A DNA stretch of 56,933 nt from NCBI GenBank assembly GCA_000697335.1, contig JNEM01010440.1, forward strand, positions 1-56,933. The letters run 5' to 3'. Position numbers and translations under genes: made by a program. The DNA is from Conidiobolus incongruus B7586 (lineage: Eukaryota). The notes beneath the pieces are model-generated. The model was given only the letters and a program-made list of their open reading frames with translations, did not search any database and had not been told where the DNA came from. Below are positions 13,701 through 51,875 of the stretch, piece by piece (within the stretch, counting starts at the first letter, position 1; every line of letters starts with the position of its first letter).

Positions 13701-14180
13701 TCTTGATATGGATCAAGACGATGAAGCTGATGATGATGACGAGTCAGGATTGAAGAATACTTCTAAGGCTTTATCTTTTGATGATTTGGCTGGTGATGCT
13801 GAAGATGAAGAAGCTGAAGATGACGATGAAATTGATGGAGAATTAGATGAAGATGGAGATGAAATTGATGGAGAATCAGATGAAGATGAAGATGAAGATG
13901 GAGATGAAGTTGATGACGAAGAAGTTGAAGATGACCAAGATTTTGACTCAGAAGAAGAAGATTTACCATTCAATTTAGCATCCGACGATTCCGACGACGA
14001 TTCTCGTGGTAATACTAATTATAATACATATTAACATCAAATACTAATACCTTTAAATTAGGTACTAAACGTAAACAACCACCTACTAAATCCCAGAGTA
14101 AATTCAAGAAACATAAAAACAAATTCAAAGATTTGCCCATGTTTGCATCCGCCGACGAATATAGTCATATGTTAGATTAA
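10746..14180 (+). CDS. MAK21: 60S ribosome biogenesis factor Mak21/Noc1 (CEBPZ/CBF family)
   Basis: Exons 10746-11192, 11245-14008, 14062-14180. Motifs GTLVDKISA, KPEQEQNLLSLLVNKLGDP, ILTGVNRAFPF, HFHPTV and LMHFLDRFVFRNPK, then an acidic tail and the family C-terminus LPMFASADEYSHMLD*. Confidence 0.95.
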
Positions 14181-14995
14181 TTTTATATTAATATTTTAGA
14201 TTTAGATTTCAAATTAATAAAATCATTATAGATAATTTATAATCATGTATTAAAAAATTGATTTTTCAATTTAATATTGAGTTTGCAATTATATTTTTTA
14301 GTATAACAAATGAGTTAAAATATTTTAAGAATCAAACCAATTCAGTGGAATAAATATAATTATAATTGCTTTAATCTATTTATAATTGATATTAGGATAT
14401 TAAAATTTATTTGGGTATTTAATTTAAACTGAATCTATGTGATAAACGATAAATTTGCTAGTAGTTAAAATAAATATAAAAATATATGAATCAAAACAAA
14501 TTCAAAGCTATGGTAAAATTACTATTTAAGAGCCATAATTAGAATTATAACTGAATTTCATTTAAGCAAAATTGCAAATAATTGAGCAGAATTTGAATAG
14601 TTCAATAGGATTATTGAAATTATCATAAAAAGAATTTCAAAGTTTTTAAATTTTGATATATAATATAGTATAATTTTTATTAACAATACATAAATGCAAA
14701 TCGATACAATATTTATTTTGATAACGTATTAAAATAACAAATAAAATAATTGACTCCAAGGCTATTCAATTAAATAATCTCAAATTAAATATTTATGATT
14801 TTATAAACATTGATAATTAAAGAATATTGATTTAATAAAAATAAAAAAGTTTGAAAATGTGGTAATACATAAATTATGAAAATATATATATTTAAAAGTA
14901 TAGAAATAAAGAATATATATAGTAGTATGAATTATTGTAATAATATGAATAAAGAATAAAAATAAAGTGTTTAGATAAGTGAAAAAATAAAGAAT

Positions 14996-15068
14996 CACCC
15001 CTACTGGGGATCGAACCCAGAATCCCCGGATTAGAAGTCCGATGCCTTATCCATTGGGCCATAGGGGC
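14996..15068 (-). tRNA. tRNA-Arg, anticodon UCU, intronless
   Basis: Minus strand reads GCCCCTATGGCCCAATGGATAAGGCATCGGACTTCTAATCCGGGGATTCTGGGTTCGATCCCCAGTAGGGGTG. Acceptor stem GCCCCTA/TAGGGGT, anticodon arm TCGGA-CT TCT AA-TCCGG, T-arm CTGGG-TTCGATC-CCCAG; a T-run Pol III terminator lies just downstream. Confidence 0.97.
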
Positions 15069-15474
15069 TTATTAAAAAAATTCAATTAAAATTTATTCCT
15101 TTTCCATATTCATAGTATTATGGATTTATAATATTTCATTATATCAGATATTTCATCTATTTTATTTTATTTTATTTTTTACTCTATCAAATCAATTTCT
15201 TTAATACATATCAGGCAATATTTTTCTATATATCATTTTTTTTTTAATTTTTTAATTATCGAATTAATTATAATTAAATTCTCAATCCCATAAACACAAA
15301 TCTGAAGATATTTCTATAAGTTTTATCAATACAAGATGATGATTTTTTTTATTGTATAACACATTTATTAATTAAATTAAAGATATTAAATTATTAATTA
15401 TTAAAAAATTTTTAAATATATTTAATTATCAATTACCTTTCATATTTATATTGATATATTAAAATTTTTAAATA

Positions 15475-15900
15475 ATGTCTTCAGTAAGTCAATATAAATA
15501 TTAATTTTACTTAAATATTAATTGTGCTATAGTTTGAACCTGTTAATCCCAAGCCCTTTTTACAAAGTTTAATAGGAGAAACAGTTAATGTAAAATTAAA
15601 GTGGGGTACTGAATATAAGGGAACTTTACAATCCGTTGATTCTTATATGAACATTCATGTAATTTATTAATTTCAAGAACAATATATTTTTACTTATTAA
15701 TATTTTAATATAGTTAATTCAAGCTGTTGAATACGTCGATGGAACTTACGCTGGTACTTTGGGTGAAATTCTTATCAGGTTATTTATATTCTTATATTTA
15801 ATATAGTCATTTTTATTAATTTGATTTTAGATGTAATAATGTTCTCTATTTGAGAGGTGCACAAGGAGAAGACGAAGAAAAACAAAATGAAGAAGATTAA
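15475..15900 (+). CDS. SMX3: Small nuclear ribonucleoprotein Sm F (absent from ORF track)
   Basis: Exons 15475-15483, 15533-15658, 15714-15778, 15831-15900 give [102 protein letters not shown] and IRCNNVLY are diagnostic of SmF. Confidence 0.95.
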
Positions 15901-16028
15901 TCTTTTTTATTTATATCATTGAAATAATCAAAATTTATCTTAATACATCTTTATATTATTTTTTTTAATTTTATTGATATTTATTGTATTGATTTTTATG
16001 TTATTTAATTCAGTATTATACAGCTTAA

Positions 16029-16794
16029 TTATTTACATTTATTCAGGTTTTCAAATCTTGTTTGTTTTAAATTATCAACTAAATAACCGATTTCTAAATT
16101 TTTCAATTCCAAGTAGTTGTTTGGGGAGAGTAACAGGTATGAGTGGTTCCTAAGTAATTGAGCAAGTTCATAAGTTATCAAGTGATACTTTTCTCATTTT
16201 AAATTCACAGTAATCGTCTTCTTAATCAAACCATCAATCTTGGGAATAAAATTGCCTTTTTGATTATTGATCCAAAATCTCTTAGAAATAGTCCCTAGTT
16301 TATTACTATTACTTTGACTCATTCCATCATACTCTTCCATCTCTGCCACATTCTTTGGATGATATTGCAAGTCATGGAGAATAGGCTTGTAGTTAGCGAT
16401 TAATTAGCAATAAATTTAAAAATTTTCATATATTTGCTAGGTGACCATAGTTTACCGTCTGTCCATCTTTGAATTCCCTCCACATTACTTACAATCGAAT
16501 CTGCATCGTTCGCTTTGAATACGAATACACAGACTCCAGCTATTTCATTCCTTTAAGATTCTTTTAACCTTGACGTGATCATTGGCAATTTGGATTGAAT
16601 ACATCCTTCTTTATAGTTCATAAGTATTGCATTCTCAAATCTAAGTAATATTTTATTTACCAATTACTCTTGAAGCATCTTCATAATTCTTAATAAATCC
16701 TAATCAACATTAAATTATATATTGAATATACATAAATAAACCTTAATAGAATAAGTCCCAAAATACCTTCAGTAATATTTTGTTTAATATTCAT
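16029..16794 (-). pseudogene. Gti1/Pac2 (WOPR domain; Wor1/Ryp1/Mit1 family) transcription factor pseudogene
   Basis: Removing introns 16766-16700 and 16660-16609 gives MNIKQNITEGFIKNYEDASRVIEGCIQSKLPMITSRLKES*RNEIAGVCVFVFK...EGIQRWTDGKLWSPSK. After a 1-nt frameshift it continues NF*IYC*L...FIPKIDGLIKKTITVNLK*EKYHLITY...SPNNYLELKNLEI. Both WOPR boxes are recognisable; there are four in-frame stops and one frameshift. Confidence 0.88.
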
Positions 16795-19648
16795 TATTAA
16801 ATTATATAATAATATTAATGAAACGATATGTATACTTTAATATACACGAATCAAGATATAGGTTCTGTATAATTTAAATTTTATTCAAATTTATATAAAT
16901 ACTATTTATGAATACCATTCCTAAAAAATGATATTCTTTTTGAGTTTTTATTTTAATGAATAACTTATAATTTTTATGAAATTTGTAATTAATATGAACC
17001 AATTACTTATCTAATACAATGTTATTCTTACCTAATTCATTTATTAAATTTTTAACTGATTAGTTATATTTAAAGTTTATAAAATTCAATTAAAATTTTG
17101 AATTATTTAAACTATTATATATTAAAATATTTAAGATTTTTTTAATCAGTGCCAAAAATATTCTAATTTACTTAACTATTAAATTTAGATAAATCTAGGG
17201 TTGAATATTAAAAAATTTCAATTGTGAATGTATAATTTTAAAATTCAAATTATCATTAAAGTATTCTAATATTCGCTAAAATTACAATATATTTGAAGAT
17301 ATATTGTAATTGTAACTAATTAGGTCATAATATTTATGAATTTGAAAAAAAAATTCAATACTGTACTTTATAAATCATTTTTTACAGTAAATTTTGATCT
17401 GATTATTTTAACAAAGCTTTAGATTTTATGATCAAATTATTAATTGTAAGTCTTAAAAATGTTCGATTCAATACTGCCCATTGGAAATGGAATAAGTCAT
17501 ATCTAGTGCATTATATATATTGCTGGTTTATGGCATATCAGTCATTTAATCAAATTATAGTGAATTTTTTATATAAAATCAATACATCATTGGCATTGAT
17601 GTAAAAATATTCAAAAATTCGAATAATTCATCATTATTTTTACAGTTTATCTAACAAAATTTATTAGTTAATTTTATATATATTAATTCTTTTTATTTGA
17701 TTTAGTATTTATAATACAATTTTAAATCACACAATATAAATTATTAACTGTTTAATACCTGACAATTTTGAATTATACTTTTAATCGATATTCCATTGTC
17801 AATTACTCTCACTTGTCAATAATTAACAGTAACTTAAATAATGATCACTCATTATGCCTGAATAATTTTTATCATTTTTATTTTAATTATAATCAGTCAC
17901 ATTTTTCAACTATTTTCATCCAATAGAAATTGAGAATATCATATATATGAAAATTAGAGTTAATCAATTTGTGATAGAAATTAGTAATCCTATTTTTAAG
18001 GGAGTTGATATTTGATTTCATTAATATTGATCACTTATAACCATTGATGAAATGTTATAATGATATTGAATTTGATTTTATTTGATTTGATAGTTCGATT
18101 ATTTCTGAGATTGATTTTGAATTACTAAATGAAATGTATTTGAGTATTATTTGTTTTTTTTATAATGGTTTATACATTTACAGCAGCGTTGCATTATTTT
18201 TGATTATTGTAGATGCAATGAATTTGATTCTATATTTTTATGCAGTTACCAAAATAGATAATGACAAGTATAGACGATATACAATATAGCTTGAAATCAA
18301 TCCCAATTCAAATGGAGAGAAGGGAGTAAATTAAAAAAGCGTTCAGAGAATTGGACGAAGGAGATTATTAAGGAGATTAATTATATATATCACCTACCTC
18401 AACCTAGTTAAATCCAAGTTAGTTATCACTGTGAGTCATAGAATCATCTATCATAATAAAATATGTTACTTGGTTAGTTATTCACCCTACCTTGCTTTGT
18501 CAAATTTAGTTAATAGTTTGTCATTTCTTAAATTTATATTATCAAGTATTTAATTTTCGGTTGTTTACCTTTATTATATATTTGTTTCAATGACAGCTTC
18601 TTTTTAACTAACGCATTTTTATTTTTTGTATTAATTATTGAATATTAATTCTTGTTTAATATAATTTTTATACTATACTTTATAATTACTTATATATATA
18701 TATATTTTAATATTATTATGATTATTTTATTATTTTATTATTAATATTGAAGATATATCTAAACTTTTTAAAAATTTAAATAAAAGGAAGTTATATATAT
18801 ACCAAATTTTATTATTTTATATAATATATCCTTATTCAATTTGACAAATTCCTTAATAATCAATTTTATGGTATGATTTAATAACCTTTTTAAGCCACTT
18901 AAATCAAGTTTAATATGTTAGGGATTTATGAAATAATTTTGATTTAAAATATTGATGACATATGTCACTAATTTGAATGAGGTTAATGGTGTTGACATCA
19001 TTTGTTGATTTTTTGTTTTATTTGACTTAATGCTATCTTACAATGTTATCTATTACTCTTATTAAAATGGCATATGCTTCAGGTGCTAAGATTATTCTCT
19101 AATGTATTAAGGAATCAACAAGTTGATTTTTACCAGTAATAATTGTTATATATTGATGTGGTTTTCTGACTTGCAATAGGTACCTTAATATATTTCATAT
19201 ACTAATATATAGATACTATGGAAAGTTCACTATCTAAATGACTAGTACAAGGAATGATCCATTCGAGAATTATTATGTATCATTTTTTAAATAAAATTTT
19301 CTACGGATATAAAATTATATATTTATATATATTTATATATCAAGTTATATAAAACTAAATAATTCAATATGTTTTTCTATTTATTAGCTTTTATATTTAA
19401 ATAAATTTTGTATATTTTTAATATTAAGAAGCTATGATTAATGTTAATATTTCAAATTGAATTTCAAACTATAATAATTCAAATTTCAAAAAATAATATA
19501 CATATATATAAAGTACAAGTTAACCAAAGAGTAATACCTTAACGTTGTTGTAAGTATATCTTAATTATCAAATCAATCCCTTCAATTATAATAATGTATC
19601 AAGTTTATTGGAATATCATATACTAATCTTTTGAATAATTAGTTGAAT

Positions 19649-20377
19649 TTAGCACATACCACCAAATCTCATATTCATCATCATGCATTTTTGGCTTTGT
19701 TGAATGCATTTTTGAGCGCAAGTTTGAATCAAACGCTGGAGCTCGCAAGCTTGACGAAGGTTATCGCACATCATACGGTAGTTCATGGTACAGTTGGAAG
19801 CTTGATTGATGCATTGACGGCATTGTTGCATTAATTGGATCATTTCCATCATATCGCGATGCATTTCACGGCACAACATACACTCACAGCTCATCATCTT
19901 GTTCTGGTTCATGGATTCACACATCATTTGGATCATACGGCACATTTGATCCTTTTCGATGCGGCATTGCTCCAAGCATTGCTGGGCCATCATAGGGTTG
20001 GTCATGCACTGGGCGAGCATGGTGCTCCATTGGTTGCAACGCTGGGCAACCATGGCCATCATGCTACAAATTCTCTGACGCATCATGCCAAAATTGTTGG
20101 TCATCATTCCATTCCAAGCCATATTGTTCATCATCATAGAGTTTTGCATGTTTCCGTGCATATCGCATGAGCAGATACCAGTCATAGCACAGTTACAACC
20201 AGCACAACCACAGCACATTGAGCCCATTGTTCCAGTCATGGACATAGGACCAAAGCTCATCATAGGGGACATAGGACCACAGTTCATCATAGGGGACATA
20301 GGACCACAGTTCATCATAGGAGACATGGGGGTAGAGCAATTCATCATGGGAGACATGTTTCCGCAGTTGTTCATCAT
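19649..20377 (-). CDS. Orphan Met/Cys-rich protein (242 aa; 57 Met, 30 Cys by hand count), intronless, no signal peptide
   Basis: Long ORF forming a GC-rich island in very AT-rich DNA. AAAAATG start context, TATAAATA about 75 nt upstream, TAA stop. Differences between repeat units are often synonymous in this frame (CCT/CCC, TCC/TCT, AAC/AAT, TGT/TGC). Confidence 0.88.
   Translation of the reverse strand: MMNNCGNMSPMMNCSTPMSPMMNCGPMSPMMNCGPMSPMMSFGPMSMTGTMGSMCCGCAGCNCAMTGICSCDMHGNMQNSMMMNNMAWNGMMTNNFGMMRQRICSMMAMVAQRCNQWSTMLAQCMTNPMMAQQCLEQCRIEKDQMCRMIQMMCESMNQNKMMSCECMLCREMHRDMMEMIQLMQQCRQCINQASNCTMNYRMMCDNLRQACELQRLIQTCAQKCIQQSQKCMMMNMRFGGMC
20240..20377 (-). repeat. Coding tandem repeat, 27-30 nt unit, ~5 copies encoding MMNCGPMSP-like units
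   Basis: The plus-strand unit ggacataggaccacagttcatcatagg occurs in two near-identical copies plus three degenerate copies. Confidence 0.9.
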
Positions 20378-20450
20378 TTTTGATAGCTTAAAATTGTTGA
20401 TTCAAATTAATATCAGTTATTATGAATTGAAGGCTGAGATCAAGTTTGAG

Positions 20451-20458
20451 TATTTATA
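20451..20458 (-). promoter_or_regulatory. TATA box of the Met/Cys-rich gene
   Basis: Plus-strand tatttata = TATAAATA on the minus strand, ~75 nt upstream of the ATG. The same motif precedes the Sis1 and 50946 genes. AT-rich background lowers specificity. Confidence 0.5.
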
Positions 20459-22089
20459 ATAACAGAAATGGTGCTAATTTAAAAACCAAGTTAGGCAAAT
20501 CTCGAAATGGAAAATGAATATGTATCCTTATACATTCATCAATTGAATAACACAAATAGACTTTTCCACAATTAATCTGAATATGTATTGACAAGTGAGG
20601 GGGTTTTATCTATAATCTTTATCCCAATCTAATTAATGGATATTGACTGATTAATTAAGTACCCTTTATTGAATAAGGAAATTATATCACAATTGATATT
20701 GAAATTTAGCTTGTTTAATAGTTAGACACGTCATCAACTTTGGATTAATATTTTCCCCTTGTTGATAAGATTTTCATATAACTTGAATAACTTTGACATT
20801 TGAATATTATAGATGTAAAATTCCACTAATATTCATTTTGAGGACTAATTTATTAAATCAATTATCAAATATTGCATAGATTACAAGTTAATGAAAATAT
20901 GCAATAATAACTCAATTAATTTAGAAATTAAAATATAATTTTATAATATCAATTACTATAATATTAAATTTATATTACTTAAACTAAAAAAAGGATTTTA
21001 AACAAATTGAAATTTTTTATTAAAAATAATTCGCTCAACAATTGACTGACTTTAAAGGATAAATTATCATTATATTATGAAATATTCTTTGATAAATATT
21101 ATAAACCTAATTTCATAATTTCTAAGCCATTAAAATATAAAGAAGTCAATGTTCTTTATGTAATTGTTTTTATAAAAATAGCATGATATATATATATTTG
21201 TATAAAATTTTGAAAGTTAAAATTTGTTTTCAAAACCAGAATTTGTGAATCAGATGATATTAATATATTAGTTGGAAACAAAGTTTGACCTTCTTAATAA
21301 ATTGGATTATTAATTGAATGATATCTTTATAATCCAGCTATATGTTTTAAAATGTATATATGTATTTATATATTAATTAGTTTGTATTTTAAGCCTCTCA
21401 GCTATTATTTATATATAATTCATAAATTTAAGAATGTACTGATTTCGTCATTTATATCAATTTATTTTATCAATCAGTTAAGCTTTTTTTTAAATTTTAT
21501 TACTTTAAATTATCAGGAATATTCTTAAATTTTTTTTTCATTTAATAATTAAAATTTAATATTTTGATATTTGATTAACCTTTTATAATTAAATATAGCT
21601 TTAATTTTTAAAGAAATTATATCAATATATAATAGAATAATTCATATTAATAACCAAATATCTATGCTAATTATTAAGTAGAAATAATTTGAAAATATTT
21701 TATATGTCGAAATTATAATCATTTTTAAGTGGCTTTTTAATATTCTTAAAACTTGAGTTATTAAAATAATGGTTATTCAATTGATTAATAACTTCAAGTT
21801 GAGTTTAGTCTATCTACTATGAATAATATAACTACGATATATATATATATTATTCAATCTTTGAAAAAATTGATTTATTTTAAATATCAATTGTAATAAT
21901 ATCACATTTTTATCAATATTACACAATATAATCTATATAAATCAAGTGGAAAACTATAGTTTAGATCTTTTTAGTATAGATATAATGAATAATATCTTTT
22001 TTCTATAAAAATTTTATAAAAATATTTTTCAAATAATACTCTAATTTGTGGTTTAATTTATGGCAACAAAATTTAAAAATATCAGTGTT

Positions 22090-22091
<2 letters not shown>

Positions 22092-22121
<30 letters not shown>
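22092..22121. repeat. (AT)n microsatellite, ~15 units
   Basis: Direct reading. Confidence 0.95.
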
Positions 22122-22123
<2 letters not shown>

Positions 22124-24643
22124 AAAGTATAAATTTAAACATTTTTTTAATTTATTAATTAAAATTTTGAACGTTATTTTATAATAGACCAATCATGATA
22201 ATATAAATATCATTAAATTTTAGTTTTTAAAAGATCTTTTTTTTCATTAATATCAGAGTATTAAAAAATCACACGAACTTGTATAATGATATCTTTTAGA
22301 AAACTAAATATTTTAATATAATTGGTGTTCCTTGTGAAATTATTATATTAATGAAAAAATTAGTAAAGACAGAAATACATATATTATTGGAATGTATTAA
22401 TTTGTATCAAGATATCATTATATCCAAACCCCAATTATTGATAATTTATTATTATAGTTTAATTATATCTAATAATAAATAATAAATTTTATCAAAAACC
22501 ATTATCTTAAATACAGAATTATACACATATATATTATCAGTGTTATAATACTATTCAGTCATCCCTATTTATATTTGATGAGAATAATTATTTTTAATTC
22601 TTTTAAAAATTAAAATTTCATAAATTATAGATATTTTGAAAATAATCATCTTTGAAGTATATAATGTCAATAAGTAACTCTGATATATGTATGATTTTCG
22701 GAAATATATATAATGAAAACAAAAATAATATATTACTAATTATAATATATCTTTAACAGATAATCCTTCAATATATATATATATATATATATTTCAAATA
22801 TTATGGATAAGAATATAAGAATATGATTTAATATTATATAATAATTTTTTAAAATATAAAATGTTATCGAATATAAGGTTGATGAAACTCAATATCAAAA
22901 CTTATAAATATTTAATATATAATATATGTGTAGATAATTTTCTATTTTTACCTTAAATACTTTGATTTCTATTATAAATTATAAAAAATAAAGACAAGAA
23001 ATTCAAGTAAAAGATAAAAAGAACTCTATCTTCAATTAATATAAAACTTATATAAATAATATATTTTATCTTTTCAAAGTTTAATATCTCTTTTTTACAT
23101 ATATAACTCATATAAGTCATCTGGGAATGGTAAGAATGAAATAATTCCCACAAAGTTCTTAGCTAAGCCTAGCCCAAGTTTATTCCAGTTTCGAAAAGTG
23201 TCTAATTCAGGTGTTCTTATATTTGATGACCATTCAGAATGCCATATTTTTGTTACTTTTATTAAAAAGTTACCACTCCCTTGAAAAGATAGCTGTGTAC
23301 ATAAAATGATTTTCTAATCTACGAATAAAATAGATTGTTATCACTGTGAGAAATGAAAAATATTGGTAAACAAAATGTATTAATAAAAATTTCTATTTTA
23401 TAATTTTATTTTGAAAAAACAATTACACTTTTATAGTCAAATTCAATTATTGTTAATTTTTTATGCATTATTTTTTTCAATATTGATAATTCTCATATAT
23501 ATTTACTTTAGGGTTGTGATTTTTATGATAAAAATTTTATAGCCAAGAGTAAAATTTAAATTTATTATTATAATATATATATATATGTGTGTGTGTGTGA
23601 TAATACCAATGAATTATCAGTGACCATTTGGAAGCAAATATAACCAAATCCAATTATCACATATTTAATTTGAAAAATAATCAATTCAAATTATTAATAT
23701 AACTAATGTAAATATAGTTTAAATTTTGATAGAGATAAATAATTTAATTTATATAAAGATTAATTTTAATATTTTTTTAAAATATATTAATAGAATAATA
23801 ATTATACTTTATGATATTCAAACACAATTATTTCATATTTTTATCAGTAATTTAAATTATGAAATATTTAAGTAAAAATAGTGTTTAAGTTGCAAGTTTT
23901 TGATAAAGTTAATTATAGAATAAATTTATAATAACAATAGTTAATCAATTTTTCTATATATTATAAGATCTTGTGGTATTACATTTGATTATTCAAATAT
24001 ATTGGTCAAATTAGAATTTGGAAAAATTGATTGATATTTTTTGAAGATTAAATTGAGTATATTATGTGAAAAAAAGTTAAAAATAATAGCTGAAACAAAA
24101 CCAAGTACCTTTTTTATGACGTTTTCATCATTTTTATACAAATAAACTCAATTCGATCACAAATTATCCTTTACTCATTGTTTAATGGACTGTCACTAAG
24201 TGTTTAAACAGTAGTTAAGTATAATCCAGTTAGGTTAGTTTTATCTATGGACATTTTATATCATAATAAAAGCAATTGTATTTTTTGATAAACATCTCAA
24301 GATGATTAAAGAATCATTTTTAATTATAATCATTTGATAATAAATTTATTAAGTCAAAATCCTTATCTAAAACTTTTTGATTAGTATTTGATCCATACAT
24401 AGATTAAATTATCATTATTTGTGATTATATGGTATATATTATCTGTTTTGACTAATGCTAAAACATTACATAATTCTAAACTGATTTATATCATTTGAAA
24501 GACATTTTTAGGACCTGGATTTTATCGATAACCCATAATAATATTTTATCATCATTCTATGCAAACATGAATTATATAATATAATATTACAACTTAATCA
24601 ATTTTAATTTTATAAAAAAATTTGGGTTAAGAGATTTTAAATA

Positions 24644-25223
24644 ATGGTAATTTAAAATAATAATTTTCTGTATATTTTTTTTATTTTGTTATACCAAAGT
24701 TAAACTGAAATATGTGATTACTTTATTAACAAGTTTTGTTACACCATCTGTAGTCACCATCTAACAGTCCTAGCATTAACACCTTACTTCAATCTGAAGA
24801 AGATGCCAGTAAAATTGTTGCCAAAGCTCGTCAATGTAAACCAAAATTTAATACTATTCATTTATTTAATAACATTAAATATATTTAATTAGACCGTACT
24901 CAAAGATTGAAGGATGCTCGTAGTGAAGCCGCTAAAGAGATTGAAGAATTGAGAAAGAAAAAGCAAGCTGAATATGAAGCTTATGAAAAACAAGTAAAGC
25001 ATTTATTTGTTAATTAATTTGCTTGATTCTAATTTGAATATAGAATATTGGTTCTAATGATGAAGTATCCAAATCTATTCAACAAGATACTCAGGCTAAA
25101 GTAGCTGAAATTGAAGCTAACTTTGCCAAGAACAAAGACCAAGTAGTTCAATCATTAATTGATGCTATTATTAATGTTAAACCAGTTCCTCATCGTAATG
25201 CTAAAGTCAACTCTTCTGCTTAA
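24644..25223 (+). CDS. VMA10: V-type proton ATPase subunit G (absent from ORF track)
   Basis: Exons 24644-24646 (ATG only), 24754-24835, 24893-24993, 25044-25223 give MSPSNSPSINTLLQSEEDASKIVAKARQYRTQRLKDARSEAAKEIEELRKKKQAEYEAYEKQNIGSNDEVSKSIQQDTQAKVAEIEANFAKNKDQVVQSLIDAIINVKPVPHRNAKVNSSA*, a typical Vma10 pattern. Confidence 0.93.
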
Positions 25224-26378
25224 TAATTGGATTTTTTACACAATATCACACATACCTTCAATTTTCAATAATACTTCTTTTCGATTTTCTTTCTAGTTAA
25301 TGATATATTTAATATTTTTATTTTTACTTGGCATTTGCTTATATACTTTGTCAACAATTTTGATCATTTTCTAATACCTATTTATTTTTAAATTTTATTA
25401 TTATATTTTCAAAATTTGATTTAAATCAAACCAATATTTTATAACTTGAATGGTCTTGAAGAGCTATGCTTACATCAATTACAAACATCTTAAAATCAAA
25501 TATTATATAAATTATTATTAAATAACTCAATATTAATCAAAAAAAAAAACCACTAATCAAAACTAAACTATGCAAACTATTATTTTAATATAAAAAATAT
25601 GTTAGATATAAATAAGAATGCTAGTCTTTTGAGAGTATTAATATATGAATAATATTTACAATTTATTACTATAATCTAGTTATAATACCAGACTCTAATG
25701 AATAATTGACTGTTATGTATCATATATATATTAACCAAGTATTATGAATTTAAAATTTTATTCAGAATCAAAGAACAATCCATCGATTGTTTCACGGTAC
25801 TACATCTCAGTTAATATAATGTTTTCTGCCTGGGGATTTGAAATTGATATATTCAACACTACTCAATATATATCATAGCCGTATCTTTGAATAAGCTATA
25901 ATTAAATGAATTATAATTTAATTATTTTTCTTTATATGATTTAAGCATGATATCATTAATTTCATTATATATATATATATAACTCAACAAGTAATTCGTC
26001 ATAAATTGGTGCTTATAATAATTTCTTAAAAATCATAAATTATACTAATTTTGAGTCGTACAAGCTAGGTATTTATCTATACTCAATATTATATTTTTAT
26101 TAATATAAAGAAATTATTCACATCATTCAATTATTTGATAATTCAAGTAAAAATAATGCTGAATCACAACATGAAATGATAATTTTTTGTGTATATTAGA
26201 AATTAAAAGGACTCAATTTCTACAAAACAGGTTCACCAGTCTATTGTTTTAAAAATTATTAAAATATAGAAAAGCCATATATTTTTGCATCTGTTCAATA
26301 TTAGACGGAATTTATAAAAAGATTGAACAAATCAAATTAAAATTCCCTAATACAGTAGTTCCACGAATCAAACTTAGA

Positions 26379-26459
26379 ATTCTCCAAGATTCGAGATTAA
26401 TCTGGAAAATTTCAATTTAAAAATTTAACAAATTTAGATTTAATTTGGTGGTATAAATA
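26379..26459 (+). promoter_or_regulatory. Degenerate heat-shock element array plus TATA box upstream of the Hsp40 gene
   Basis: In-phase 5-bp units TTC-CAA-TTC-GAT-ATC-GAA-TTT at 26380-26412 (3 perfect, 4 single-mismatch nGAAn/nTTCn), then TATAAATA at 26452-26459. Sis1-type genes are known Hsf1 targets. Confidence 0.5.
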
Positions 26460-26553
26460 TGAGTGTTAGTCCAAGATCAATAGCGAATTTTTCACCTTGA
26501 CTTTTAACAGTTAAGTTTAATTAAATTAATATATATATAAATATATATACGTA

Positions 26554-27543
26554 ATGGGTAAAGATTATTATAGCATCCTTGGTGTCTCTAAATCTGCTAC
26601 CGAAGATGAAATTAAGAAAGCTTATAAGAAAGCTGCTTTAAAATACCACCCCGATCGTAACCCAAACGATAAAGAGAATGCGAATAAAAAATTCAAAGAA
26701 GTTTCCGAAGCATATGAAGTATTAAGTGATTCTAACAAACGTGAAATATTCGATCAATATGGCGAAGAAGGTCTTAAAGGCGGTGCTGGTGCTGGCCCTC
26801 AGTTCCATGCCAACGGATTCCCTGGAGGTTTTGGAGGTGGTCGCGGCTTCCAATCTTTCAACTTCACTCCCTCTTCCGCTGATGACATCTTTCGCGCTTT
26901 CTTTAGCGGTGGTGGTGGTTTTGATATGGGTGGCATGGGCGGTATGGGCGGAATGGGTGGAGGTGGTGATCCATTCGGATTCAGCTCTCATTCACGCTCT
27001 TCTGGACCCCGTAAACCTGCCCCTGTAACAAGAAAAATTCCTTTGTCTTTGGAAGATTTATACTCCGGCGTTACCAAGAAGCTCAAGGTTACTCGATCAT
27101 CTGTCACCTCTGGTAGAAGCAATGAGACTATTCTTACGCTCAACGTTAAGCCTGGTTGGAAGGCTGGTACTAAAATTACATTCGGCAATGAAGGTGATGA
27201 AGTTGCTCCTGGCGTTGCTCAAGACGTTGAATTCATTATTGACGAAAAACCCCATCCTACGTTTACTAGAACCGATAATGATCTTAACACTACTGTCAAG
27301 TTGAGCCTTAAGGAAGCTTTATGCGGATTCAAGAGAACCATCCAGACCCTTGATAACCGTGAACTCCCTATTCAAAACAGCGGTATCACTAAACCTGGTC
27401 AAACTTTCCAAGTTCCTGGTGAAGGTATGCCTATATCTAAATATCCTGGTCAAAAAGGTCGTCTCTATGTTAAAACTGATATCCAATTCCCTACAAGCTT
27501 AACCGCTGAACAAAAGAAAGCTTTGGCTAATATTCTTCCTTGA
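26554..27543 (+). CDS. SIS1: Class B cytosolic Hsp40/DnaJ, Sis1/Psi1/DNAJB1-like, intronless
   Basis: J domain with HPD ([11 protein letters not shown]...LKYHPDRN), G/F- and G/M-rich linker, no zinc finger, and a C-terminal domain with [22 protein letters not shown] and LKEALCG. Confidence 0.93.
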
Positions 27544-29471: not shown

Positions 29472-32400
29472 ATGTCACAATATTTTTTTCCAAACCAGAC
29501 AGGAAATAATTCGCTTTATCCTAACCAATCGACCCAAAACAACAATTTTCAAAATAAAGATTCATATGAAGGAACAAGATTTCCCCCGAATCAAAATTTT
29601 GACGCAAATTCTTTTGGACAGATGAATTTTCCTCCTATGTCTGCGCCTTATCTCAATGCAAGTAATGCGAATTCGAATTTATATCAGCAAAATGCTTGGT
29701 CTCAGCCTTCTTTAAACCAGCCTTCATATGTTGTTCCGAATCAACAAGACAACTTCAATCCAACTGCTTTTCCTGGAAATAATATTCCTCAAATTAATAT
29801 TACTAACATCTTTAGCCATGCTAATCCTAACAGCTTTCCTCACAACTTTAATTCACAAGGCATTGCTCCTAAATTGGATCAATTTCCGATGAATGTTAAT
29901 ACATTCCCTAATGATAACGGTCAAGCTTGGTTAAATTCTGATCTAAGTGCTACCAATCCTAACATTCTAAACAATAATAGAATGAACTTCCTCCAGCAAT
30001 TCCAGCAGCACCAGCAGCACCAGCAGTTTCAGTTACAGCAATTCCAGCAAAACCAACAGTTTCAACCGCCGCAGCAGCAGCAGCAGCAACAACAACAACA
30101 ACAACAGCAGCAGCAGCAGCAGCAGTTTCAGCAAAATCAGCAGTTGCCTCAGCAACAACAGAAAATACCTCTGGGGACACAACCATCAAATGTTATGGAT
30201 GGGTTTATGAACACTCAAAGTCTTAGCTCTGCTAACATAATAAATCCCGAAACATTTAGCTCCTCACAAAATCAGGCTAATAACAAGAATTCTACTTCTC
30301 AAGCCGATCAATTTAGCAACATTAGTCAAGCTACTCCCGCTGTTTCCAATCCTTCCTCTCTTCCTAGCACACTAAATCAAACTACGAAATTGCCACAGTC
30401 TTTTCCACAAGCATCGATGCCTGGGTATATTCCAATTCAGCCTCACCCCAATGCCAATATAACTAGTTCATCTTTACCCAACTTTTCAAACAGCCAACAG
30501 CTTAATCAATTCTATCCTACAAGTAATCAGATGGCTCCCAATTCATCTTTTTCTAACACCGCAACTGTCCAATCTATGGCTAATATACAGCCACTCCCTA
30601 ATCCATCCAGTCAACAGATTGCCAATGCCCAAAATAATCAATCTGCATCTCCTTCCCCATTGAAGCCAACATTCCCATCACTTGCGCCCAAAATTAACGA
30701 TTTAAACCAGAGCCCTGCTCAAACACCAGTAGGAGTATACCCTAATATCCCCACAATCAAGCCGCAGACGATACAACAATCAACTCTACAGACTGCGAAG
30801 CCAATTATGCCAGCCATTTCTCAAAATAACGCAAGCACACCTCAAAGAGATTTATCTCCCAGACCTGCGTCAAATGGATCAGGACAAACACCGATATCTG
30901 TATATTACTCTATGACCTATGAAGAGCTAAGATCCAAAGTAGGATGGACGAATAGCCAGGAGCTTGAGACAATCCGAAATGAATGCTTGCAGTCTGAGCA
31001 GAAGTTTTATGAGCATTTTAACAAATTTTGGAAAGCGTTCAAAAAAGATCCACCCCAATATGCTATCATTGCTGGTCAAAATCTATCACTTTATCATTTT
31101 TGGTGTAAGGTTCAGAGTACTGGGGGTTCTGCTGAGGTATTTAATATAATTTTCATGTTATTTGATATCGTATAAACTTTACCATAAATTTGTAATAGGT
31201 TACAAAAAGGAAATTATGGAAGGAGCTTGCTTTTGAAATTGGATTGGCTAAGGACACCAAAGCTCCTCCTTCAATGATTAAGGTCCGCTGGGAAAGGACA
31301 TTAGATCTTTTTGAATATTGTTTATATGGTGATATTAGTAATCGACTTCCACCAAATGTCCCGGCGAAAAGTATTAACAAAGGCAATTTTTCAGGTAATC
31401 TTGGAATAATTTAAGCTGATTATATACTTCATTTCTCTTAATATTTTTAATTCTTCAAAACACTAATAATGAATATTGATTTTGTTTTTAGTTTCTAAGG
31501 AATCTTCAGTCAATCCAGATTTCAGTGATCAGAGCATTGGTACTAATCCAAATCAAAGTGTTATCTTACCATCCCCATCCCCTTCAAATTTTAAATCCTC
31601 AATGTCCAAGGTATTTTTAACAATTTTTGCATCATCTTAAATGATCTGACATTAATAATTTTAGGATCTTACGAGTGCAACTCCCCAATCCAATCTTATC
31701 AATAACTCTCAAATGATTGATTCTAAGCTTCAAGTTAATAATGTGGAATCTTTAGTCTCTCCGACACTTATCAATCAGATGAATACTATCCCAATGAATG
31801 ATGCGATAGTTAAAACAGAATCACAGGTACAATCTCCAATCAGCTCTATTTCAAAAGCTACCACTCCCCCACCAAAACCTTATATTCCTTTTGCGAGAGT
31901 ACTTGATACCTACGGTGGTTTAGATCTGAAATCACTCAAACCCTTTCTTTATTCTTCTGCATACCCATCATACCCTTCTCCAAAGGTAGAGTGGCATGAT
32001 CTTATAATGAGTCTTAAATCTTCATCTGTTTTTCATTTAACCAATGCGATAAATATTCTGTTGTCTGCTTCGGGTTCTAATAATCAGGTGATTTCTTTAT
32101 CTGATCATGAAACTGTCTACGATGCTTTGATGTCCCTCATAGATGAAGCTTTGTTACAAATAGACCAAAGCTATAGTAATGATACCCAAAATTCCAAAGA
32201 ACTCAAGTTTTCGCATCAGATTATCTCAAGTTATTATCATGAAAACGATGTTAACATCAAACCAGCTGAAGACAGTCAGAGCTTTCATTTGCAAGATCAA
32301 GTCATTCACTCAATTCCAAGCATATTTATAATCTTTCGAAATCTCTCCTTCTTTCCTGAGAATCAAAAATATCTCTCGAAAGATTCTGATTTCGTTAGTA

Positions 32401-33266
32401 CCGTATTGCCTTTGATTACCAAAACACAAGATTTTAAAGTGTTTTCCAATTCCATTTGGTTAGAACTGAGAAGAAATTTTTTGATCATTATATCCAATAT
32501 TATGGAGCATTATCGTCTTTCAACGGTTGATGAATCTAATTTCCAATTAATTGAGTTTATATCTCAATGCTCTCAAGATGACAGTGACTATTATAGTAAA
32601 CTGGCACTTGAATCTTTAATTAAATTGGCTGTACAAGATATCAACCAGTCGTTTTTTAACAGTCCAAGATCTCATGCTATTTTGAGTCCTCTTTATCTAT
32701 TTTTGACGGAACAGCTGACAAATCTCCCTTGTGGGACTCATTCATCATCTGCTCCTAATCCCAACTTTTTGATGGAAGACACCGTTTTAACCTTTTATTA
32801 TTATTTAGCATCCATACATTTACTCTCGAAGCTAATTCTAGACTCAAATTATGAAGTAATCGGTTGTGTTATATCTTTAGTGTCATACTTGACGAATCTA
32901 TTACGCTGGTTCACTCAATTGGAGATGCAGGATCGAGTCATGCAACATATGGCAACTAAGCCTCAATTTTCATACAACCATTCGTTTCCAATGAATCGAT
33001 CCATTCATATTACTTCATTAGATCCTAAAGATATAAGCGAATTTATGATTAGTTTGATCACTCGAATCACCCAAATCATACAGTATTTAGAGAGATACTA
33101 CATCTTAATCGATGAGAAGCATGACGCCGAAAAATCTAGACTGGGCTATAACTTTTCTAAATCCAAGAAACATTTACTCGAAACATTTGGCATTATGAAC
33201 ATTCATCCTAGCATTGCTTATTTAATCGATGAAATCATCAAAACTTTAAATAGTTTAAAATTGTAA
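29472..33266 (+). CDS. SWI/SNF ARID subunit, Swi1/Sol1/ARID1-like
   Basis: Exons 29472-31136, 31199-31394, 31492-31610, 31665-33266. Q/N/P-rich N-terminus; spliced ARID domain LSLYHFWCKVQSTGGSAEVTKRKLWKELAFEIGL...IKVRWERTLDLFE; then RVLDTYGGLDL...DLIMSLKSS...NAINIL and IFRNLSFFPENQKYL, as in the Swi1/BAF250 armadillo region. Confidence 0.85.
29994..30161 (+). repeat. CAG/CAA poly-glutamine region within the Swi1-like gene
   Basis: Encodes QQFQQHQQHQQFQLQQFQQNQQFQPP followed by a pure Q run (30072-30125) and FQQNQQLPQQQQ. Confidence 0.9.
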
Positions 33267-50945: not shown

Positions 50946-51875
50946 ATGGCTGACACTGCTGTACTTACTCAAATCACAAAACGCTTTCCTTCAGTACGTT
51001 TATCACAATGTCCTAATCTTTCTATAAAAAGACGAATTAGCAAATTCCATCTCACTTTACCATCATCATCAGAACCCATAACACAAGACCTCCATAGTCC
51101 CACTAAAATCTATGAGCTTAACTCTTTCAAAGCATTTAATGAGAACTTACAAAATCACAAAAGGAAATCTAACTCCACCTCCGCTTCCCATGCTTCATCT
51201 ACTACCCTTAGTAGTGACAAGGAGTCTTCATCAGGATTCGACTACTGGATCCCTCCGAAAATAATCCAAAAGAGATATATTATGCGTAAAGGCAAATTTT
51301 TCAGCAACTCGTGGTATTTAACCAACGAGGATGGTGAATTATGCTATCGCTTCTATCCAACCAGTAATGAGCAAGCCTTACTTACCACAGATCGCAAGCT
51401 GCAGATTGGCAAAGTTTATCAGCCACCAGTAGGCGATCTCACAATAACCCTGCAAGTCCCCTCATCAAAGTCCATTTACAAATGGGTCACTTTGACTCCT
51501 ATTGATGCTTCTTTAGGAAATTACAATGTCAATCTCTGCAAGCGCCGCGTATCTTCTCCCAATCAATCTCAAGAGAAAACTACCCAATCTCATCAAATCC
51601 AGACATTCAGCTGGAACTATGATGCTTCTCGCAATGGCTGGATCCTCTTTGATGACCTGTATTTCACTCATGGCAGATTTTCTCTCACCAACTCTAATGA
51701 GCAGTTTGGCGACTTAGAATTCTTAACCAACCGTCTAGAATCCCAACAAGTATTGTATCTGATGATAGCTTTGAATATTATTCTCTATCGTCACAGTAAC
51801 TGGCTGCTGGGTGGCAAGTTGCTATGTCGTCAAAGCAGCATTAAGAGTAATTCAAGTAGTGAATTGTATATATAA
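50946..51875 (+). CDS. Hypothetical protein (309 aa), possibly tubby-C/LURP-one/scramblase-like beta-barrel
   Basis: Intronless ORF in a GC-elevated island with AAAATGG context and a TATA box. A Ser-rich disordered N-terminus is followed by beta-strand-like segments (KRYIMRKGKFFSNSWYLTNEDGELCYRF...FSWNY...GWILFD...GRF) and a single hydrophobic helix VLYLMIALNIILY. The fold call is inference. Confidence 0.8.
   Translation: MADTAVLTQITKRFPSVRLSQCPNLSIKRRISKFHLTLPSSSEPITQDLHSPTKIYELNSFKAFNENLQNHKRKSNSTSASHASSTTLSSDKESSSGFDYWIPPKIIQKRYIMRKGKFFSNSWYLTNEDGELCYRFYPTSNEQALLTTDRKLQIGKVYQPPVGDLTITLQVPSSKSIYKWVTLTPIDASLGNYNVNLCKRRVSSPNQSQEKTTQSHQIQTFSWNYDASRNGWILFDDLYFTHGRFSLTNSNEQFGDLEFLTNRLESQQVLYLMIALNIILYRHSNWLLGGKLLCRQSSIKSNSSSELYI

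Follow-up and report, generated by a model that had tools for sequence, protein, structure and literature searches.

The minus strand of the 56,933-nt window (the whole stretch of DNA analysed here) carries an uninterrupted ORF at positions 19649..20377 that looks like a real orphan gene of extreme composition. It encodes a Met- and Cys-rich protein of 242 residues (27.6 kDa) with a predicted helical bundle, for which a copper-store-like function is plausible on the strength of its sequence. Identification of this protein as a bacterial copper storage protein (Csp) is not supported by our sequence comparisons. Met accounts for 57 residues (23.6%) and Cys for 30 (12.4%); together, these sulfur donors make up 87 of the 242 residues (36%). 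There are 23 Asn and 23 Gln (19% together), only 11 Asp or Glu, only six aromatic residues and just two histidines (His74 and His173). A signal-peptide-like hydrophobic stretch is absent: 9-mers that begin at residues 1–27 reach a Kyte-Doolittle value of 0.3 at most.

The protein is composed of four regions, the first three of which lie within a low-complexity segment (aa 1–96) that is predicted to be disordered. The first region (aa 1–54; 20216..20377, minus strand) is rich in Met, Asn, Pro and Gly, has a pLDDT of about 33 and contains approximately four 9-residue repeats of the MMNCGPMSP type, with 18 Met, 4 Cys and five MxxM motifs. At the DNA level, a 27-bp unit is repeated 3.2 times at 20240–20326 with 95% matches. 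The whole protein has 11 MxxM and six MxM motifs, the number of MxxM being that expected at 24% Met. This region is followed by a cluster of seven Cys in 17 residues (aa 55–71; 20165..20215, minus strand), with gaps of 1, 2, 3, 2, 6 and 2 and small residues as spacers. We take this CC/CxC/CxxC cluster to be metallothionein-like; its Cys density is within chance for the composition of the protein (p = 0.11), and no Pfam family matches it at E ≤ 10. A Met/Asn-rich linker devoid of Cys (aa 72–92; 20102..20164, minus strand) leads into the fourth region, a predicted up-down four-helix bundle with 18 Cys (aa 93–237; 19667..20101, minus strand).

The bundle contains the feature singled out in the preliminary description of this DNA (19685..20086, aa 98–231), and the count of 18 Cys given there is confirmed. 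Those limits take in the bundle cysteines and omit the Met-rich repeats and the Cys cluster. The four helical segments described there also reappear in our analysis as four amphipathic helices, in a structure model that is of low confidence (pLDDT 45–60). The amphipathic periodicity of the region is significant, with apolar faces formed by Met, Cys and a few Ile and Leu. Cys residues are not significantly confined to one side of the helices (p = 0.19–0.66). Using a sequence proxy for the apolar half, 11 of 17 Cys are located there (0.65, p = 0.19), compared with a median of 89% (range 58–100%) in Csp3 proteins, and Met shows no bias (14 of 27). We also asked whether one half of the bundle is a duplicate of the other, and rejected this (p = 0.3).

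The ORF has a GC content of 44% and is flanked by DNA of 22–25% GC, in a window that is AT-rich (15–40% GC per 2 kb). In two-fold pyrimidine boxes, 38 of its 63 codons end in C; the count for eight neighbouring ORFs taken together is 415 of 1276 (p = 1.4e-5, Fisher test). AAC is used for 17 of the 23 Asn codons (p = 2e-5). The next highest C-ending share belongs to a DnaJ/Sis1-type gene (31/67, 0.46). This codon bias, the strongest among the nine ORFs, suggests selection for high expression. A TATA-like element (TATAAAT; 20452..20458, minus strand) 81 nt upstream of the ATG, an A at position −3 and a polyadenylation-like AATAAA (19604..19609, minus strand) 40 nt past the stop codon fit a real gene, each being weak evidence in AT-rich DNA. 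The 1.5 kb upstream of the ORF contain no MacA, CuRE or MRE motif, and an Ace1-like 9-mer occurs once, at −966. Two STRE-like AGGGG/CCCCT pentamers lie 225 and 382 nt upstream in the AT-rich DNA, at approximately 20598–20602 and 20755–20759; they were noted post hoc, after eight motifs had been tried.

The segment from 14034 to 26554 holds the Met/Cys-rich ORF alone, besides a tRNA-Arg(TCT) gene (14996–15068, minus strand) and the antisense frames of the ORF itself. Elsewhere in the window, ORFs encode CBF/Mak21, DnaJ, ARID/BAF250-like, STE-type transcription factor and SMC proteins, several of them apparently cut by introns. The STE domain is indicative of a fungus, and the host is likely fungal. 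Two plus-strand ORFs at 29472–33266 with weak ARID and BAF250_C matches are probably exons of a single SWI1/ARID1-like gene. A 1223-residue multi-pass membrane protein with a long Pro/Asn-rich insert (3406–7077, plus strand) has no Pfam match and presumably resembles a Doa10/MARCH6-type ligase without its RING exon. A 309-residue ORF (50946–51875, plus strand) has neither a Pfam match at E ≤ 1 nor an exact match in the protein collection searched. No metal-related Pfam match was found in the 10 neighbouring ORFs scanned, and the window contains no paralogue of the Met/Cys-rich protein.

Our preferred reading, held tentatively and with a little less than even confidence, is that the protein may be an abundant cytosolic sponge for soft metals, chiefly Cu(I), with an origin independent of the bacterial Csps. 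Ligand sets that are rich in sulfur donors and poor in His, Asp and Glu favour soft metals, and such metals would be favoured here because 87 of the 242 residues are sulfur donors, set against so few His, acidic and aromatic residues. The lack of an N-terminal hydrophobic signal and the codon bias also speak for an abundant protein of the cytosol. In such a sponge, Cys thiols would be kept free in the reducing cytosol and the disordered MxxM repeats would capture Cu(I) weakly via their thioethers. The cluster at aa 55–71 would fold around a small Cu-thiolate cluster in metallothionein fashion, and additional ions would sit in the bundle, at sites that combine Cys with Met within and between helices, with no continuous CxxxC-lined channel of the Csp3 type. 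Folding of the bundle may be metal-assisted, as for SilE. In a more specific version, which is possible but on the doubtful side, the chain would combine Mets repeats with a metallothionein-like cluster and a Cys/Met-lined bundle, as a high-capacity Cu(I) store that arose independently in eukaryotes and came to resemble the Met-rich actinobacterial Csp3 proteins in composition.

Metallothioneins are short chains with approximately 20–33% Cys in CC, CxC and CxxC motifs and no regular secondary structure. Fungal copper metallothioneins such as Cup1 and Crs5 share with our protein a location in the cytosol, presumed for the latter, many Cys, few aromatics and a cluster like that at aa 55–71. Our protein differs from them in its length of 242 residues, its 12.4% Cys, the predominance of Met, the predicted helical domain and the lack of a metallothionein Pfam match; the resemblance is limited to aa 55–71 and does not extend to the protein as a whole. 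The MxxM and MxM ‘Mets’ motifs are described as copper-acquisition motifs of fungal Ctr proteins (PMC6981102, excerpt), and SilE as a Met/His sponge that folds upon metal binding (PMC5008109, excerpt). With Ctr1 and the SilE/PcoE sponges our protein has in common many such motifs in a disordered region and possible metal-induced folding; unlike them, it is neither secreted nor membrane-bound, has two His only and is rich in Cys. Two further leads are excerpts in which copper sequestration is given as the main role of fungal metallothioneins (PMC5812535) and a spore oxidase receives its copper from BsCsp3 (PMC9484137). Points against the sponge are the absence of homologues from the collections searched, the placement of Cys and Met without significant preference for one side of the helices, the chance-level density of the Cys cluster, a number of MxxM motifs no higher than the Met content leads one to expect, the absence of an upstream MacA, CuRE or MRE motif and the lack of metal-related Pfam matches among the neighbouring ORFs scanned.

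The composition would also suit a reserve of sulfur and amide nitrogen in spores or resting cells that is later degraded, the helices serving merely as compact packing, in the manner of Met/Cys-rich seed storage proteins. We regard this as unlikely, though well short of negligible. The 36% sulfur-containing residues and 19% Asn plus Gln agree with a reserve, and the metal-sponge reading fits them equally well; the short tandem repeats, the codon bias expected of high expression and an arrangement of Cys and Met other than that of a defined metal channel also speak for it. Sulfur-rich seed storage proteins include δ-zein and 2S albumin, and the prolamin/2S albumin superfamily is marked by a signal peptide and a conserved Cys skeleton. 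The protein described here has no N-terminal hydrophobic stretch and no prolamin or 2S-albumin Pfam match, and its genome context is of the fungal type. One parallel is the rice 10-kDa prolamin CysR10, a plain storage protein with 20% Met and 10% Cys (PMC3110882, excerpt), which shares with our protein both composition and implied high expression and thereby counts against the sponge. In the same excerpt, however, CysR10 goes to the ER lumen and carries disulfides, whereas our protein has no signal peptide. A literature search found no paper that brings together a Met-rich protein, fungal spores and storage.

Also unlikely is a redox role, in which reversible oxidation of Met and Cys would make the protein a redox sink or a redox-switched condensate or structural protein. 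The Met/Asn-rich disordered part would drive self-assembly, and the helical part would oligomerise or become cross-linked by disulfides. The predicted disorder and low complexity of aa 1–96 are in keeping with this role, as are the two STRE-like sites at −382 and −225, found post hoc. A precedent is Pbp1 of yeast, whose Met-rich domain of low complexity forms condensates that are dissolved by Met oxidation (PMC8394241, excerpt). Such a role would, however, leave the CC/CxC cluster unexplained and require fewer than the 30 Cys present, and the protein has no RNA-binding or other effector domain.

The preliminary description had likened the bundle to the bacterial Csps, and the likeness holds for its 18 Cys and four predicted helices but not for homology, Cys spacing or the His motif. 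Csp3 proteins carry 16–19 Cys (PMC10155185, Table 1), and Csps bind 13–20 Cu(I) per monomer with an affinity of ∼1e17 per M (Csp3, PMC10155185; Csp1, PMC5171941). Csps are homotetramers, and their Cys all face the core of the bundle and form no disulfides. With Csp1 and Csp3 (PDB 5fjd, 5arm, 5fig, 6q6b and 6zif), the protein has in common four helices of ∼30 residues, here predicted, and the bundle Cys; like Csp3, it has no export signal. It differs from them in being eukaryotic, in having an additional 92-residue Met/Cys-rich N-terminal part and in being rich in Met and Gln, with 4% Ala compared with 17.5% in Csps. The Csp3 His motif (α3–loop–α4) is absent, His74 and His173 being the only His of the protein; this motif is also missing in the RkCsp3 subgroup (PMC10155185).

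Profile comparisons give no significant link to PF03860. Neither the bundle nor the whole protein has a match at E ≤ 10 in Pfam, NCBIfam or PDB sequences, and hhalign assigned a probability of 0.26% (E = 0.24) to the pairing with Csp. In unfiltered hmmsearch runs, the bundle scored −10.3 bits against a classical Csp3 profile and −16.1 bits against a Met-rich Csp3 profile (corrected scores); the two Csp subfamilies detect each other at no less than 16 bits, with medians of 58 and 35. These scores lie slightly above those of shuffled sequences, 10–94 of 1000 shuffles reaching them in eight comparisons (p 0.01–0.09), and the reversed sequence likewise scores above the shuffle mean. The protein matches 11 of the 19 Csp Cys columns, as do 11 of 30 shuffles.

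The Csp-like i+3/i+4/i+7 spacing of Cys noted in the preliminary description does not exceed expectation: we count eight such pairs, compared with 6.6 by chance (p = 0.33) and a median of 25 in Csp3s. Gaps of 3 or 4 account for 4 of the 17 Cys gaps (24%), compared with a median of 78% and a minimum of 50% in 114 classical Csp3s; most gaps are of 7–11 residues, and no CxxC/CxxxC register is repeated along the helices. The corresponding share in Met-rich Csps goes down to 17%. For both the gap share of our protein (24%) and its apolar-Cys share (0.65), there is at least one Csp set whose range, starting at 0.17 and 0.58, respectively, includes the value in its lower part. One local agreement is C134–C138–C146–C153, spaced 4/8/7 like the Cys of the Csp α3–loop–α4 segment, in a stretch chosen by both HMMER and hhalign. 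Fold searches with the low-confidence model returned no Csp among the matches listed, and a viral library gave no clear match. PF03860 was found in none of 301 genomes of one phylum; five IMG/VR viral contigs (L002–L006) carry classical Csp3 genes, possibly as phage cargo or in host flanks.

A composition-matched control is provided by a Met-rich Csp3 subfamily (L071:160-549, plus strand; P0003–P0103), on which our literature search found no paper. Its named members are actinobacterial (Pseudolysinimonas, Schumannella, Georgenia, Agromyces and Gryllotalpicola), and several are annotated as ‘aldehyde dehydrogenase’. The composition of the subfamily is 24.6% Met with 9.1% Cys, and the median number of Cys is 12. 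Eight of the 19 classical Cys columns are replaced (by Ala in three, Met in two, and Asp, Thr and Gly in one each), and the remaining 11 are kept together with invariant His. Met may serve as a ligand in such proteins, or their copper capacity may be lower. Their existence means that a composition like that of our protein occurs within the Csp family. The protein and these Csp3s are near-equal in composition and share a Met-rich N-terminal extension and a four-helix bundle. However, the control is identified as Csp by both sequence and fold, with Csp entries at ranks 1–5 of its fold search, whereas our protein is not so identified and has no significant link to the subfamily. The top-50 fold-search lists of the two share one entry (2yfa), which hints at a difference in bundle handedness, though the model of our protein is too weak for a conclusion.

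We consider it very unlikely that the protein is a highly diverged Csp3 homologue, acquired for example by horizontal transfer, extended at its N-terminus and holding Cu(I) in a Cys-lined core. The Cys count, the helices of like length, the spacing at C134–C153, scores marginally above shuffles and values that overlap those of the most degenerate Csps are set against strongly negative bit scores, Cys-column matches that 11 of 30 shuffles attain, few spaced Cys pairs and the missing His motif.

No relatives were found in broader collections. A word-indexed search of 5.8 billion proteins in the length class of the protein returned 90 candidates for the full length, none at E ≤ 0.001, and none at all for the bundle alone. 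Two phmmer matches among 1.84 billion representatives were unrelated repeat proteins that aligned with the N-terminal or repeat part only, and were rejected. The ESM Atlas, genome, metagenome and viral contigs, and plasmids contained no homologue, and an exact look-up matched none of five sequences. The literature records screened pointed to no fungal or eukaryotic Csp and to no fungal Met/Cys-rich protein of this kind. Orphan status is provisional because the collections searched are not fungal genome collections and three neighbouring ORFs likewise lack an exact match; the low complexity of the protein makes such searches less sensitive and the coverage of fungal assemblies is poor, for which reason the empty searches are no proof of uniqueness. 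It is nevertheless highly improbable that the ORF is non-functional or spurious, or that the true gene lies on the plus strand (His-rich ORF at 19835–20170 or Ile/Phe-rich ORF at 20085–20459): the lack of homologues would agree with this, but the ORF is a 242-codon GC island with strong codon bias and significant amphipathic periodicity, its codon adaptation is 0.66 compared with 0.62 and 0.52 for the plus-strand ORFs, and the His (CAT) runs of the latter arise as the antisense shadow of ATG codons.

Copper stores of the bundle type are described from bacteria, and metallothioneins, which are unstructured, chiefly from eukaryotes (PMC10155185, PMC5171941). The present basis for adding to this picture is one orphan protein known from sequence alone. 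Should it instead serve as a reserve of sulfur, it would parallel, in a fungus, the Met-rich storage proteins of seeds. If our preferred reading is true, a helical-bundle store that arose separately in a fungus would represent a further eukaryotic way of holding copper, and nature would have supplied a comparison of Met with Cys as ligands in bundles.
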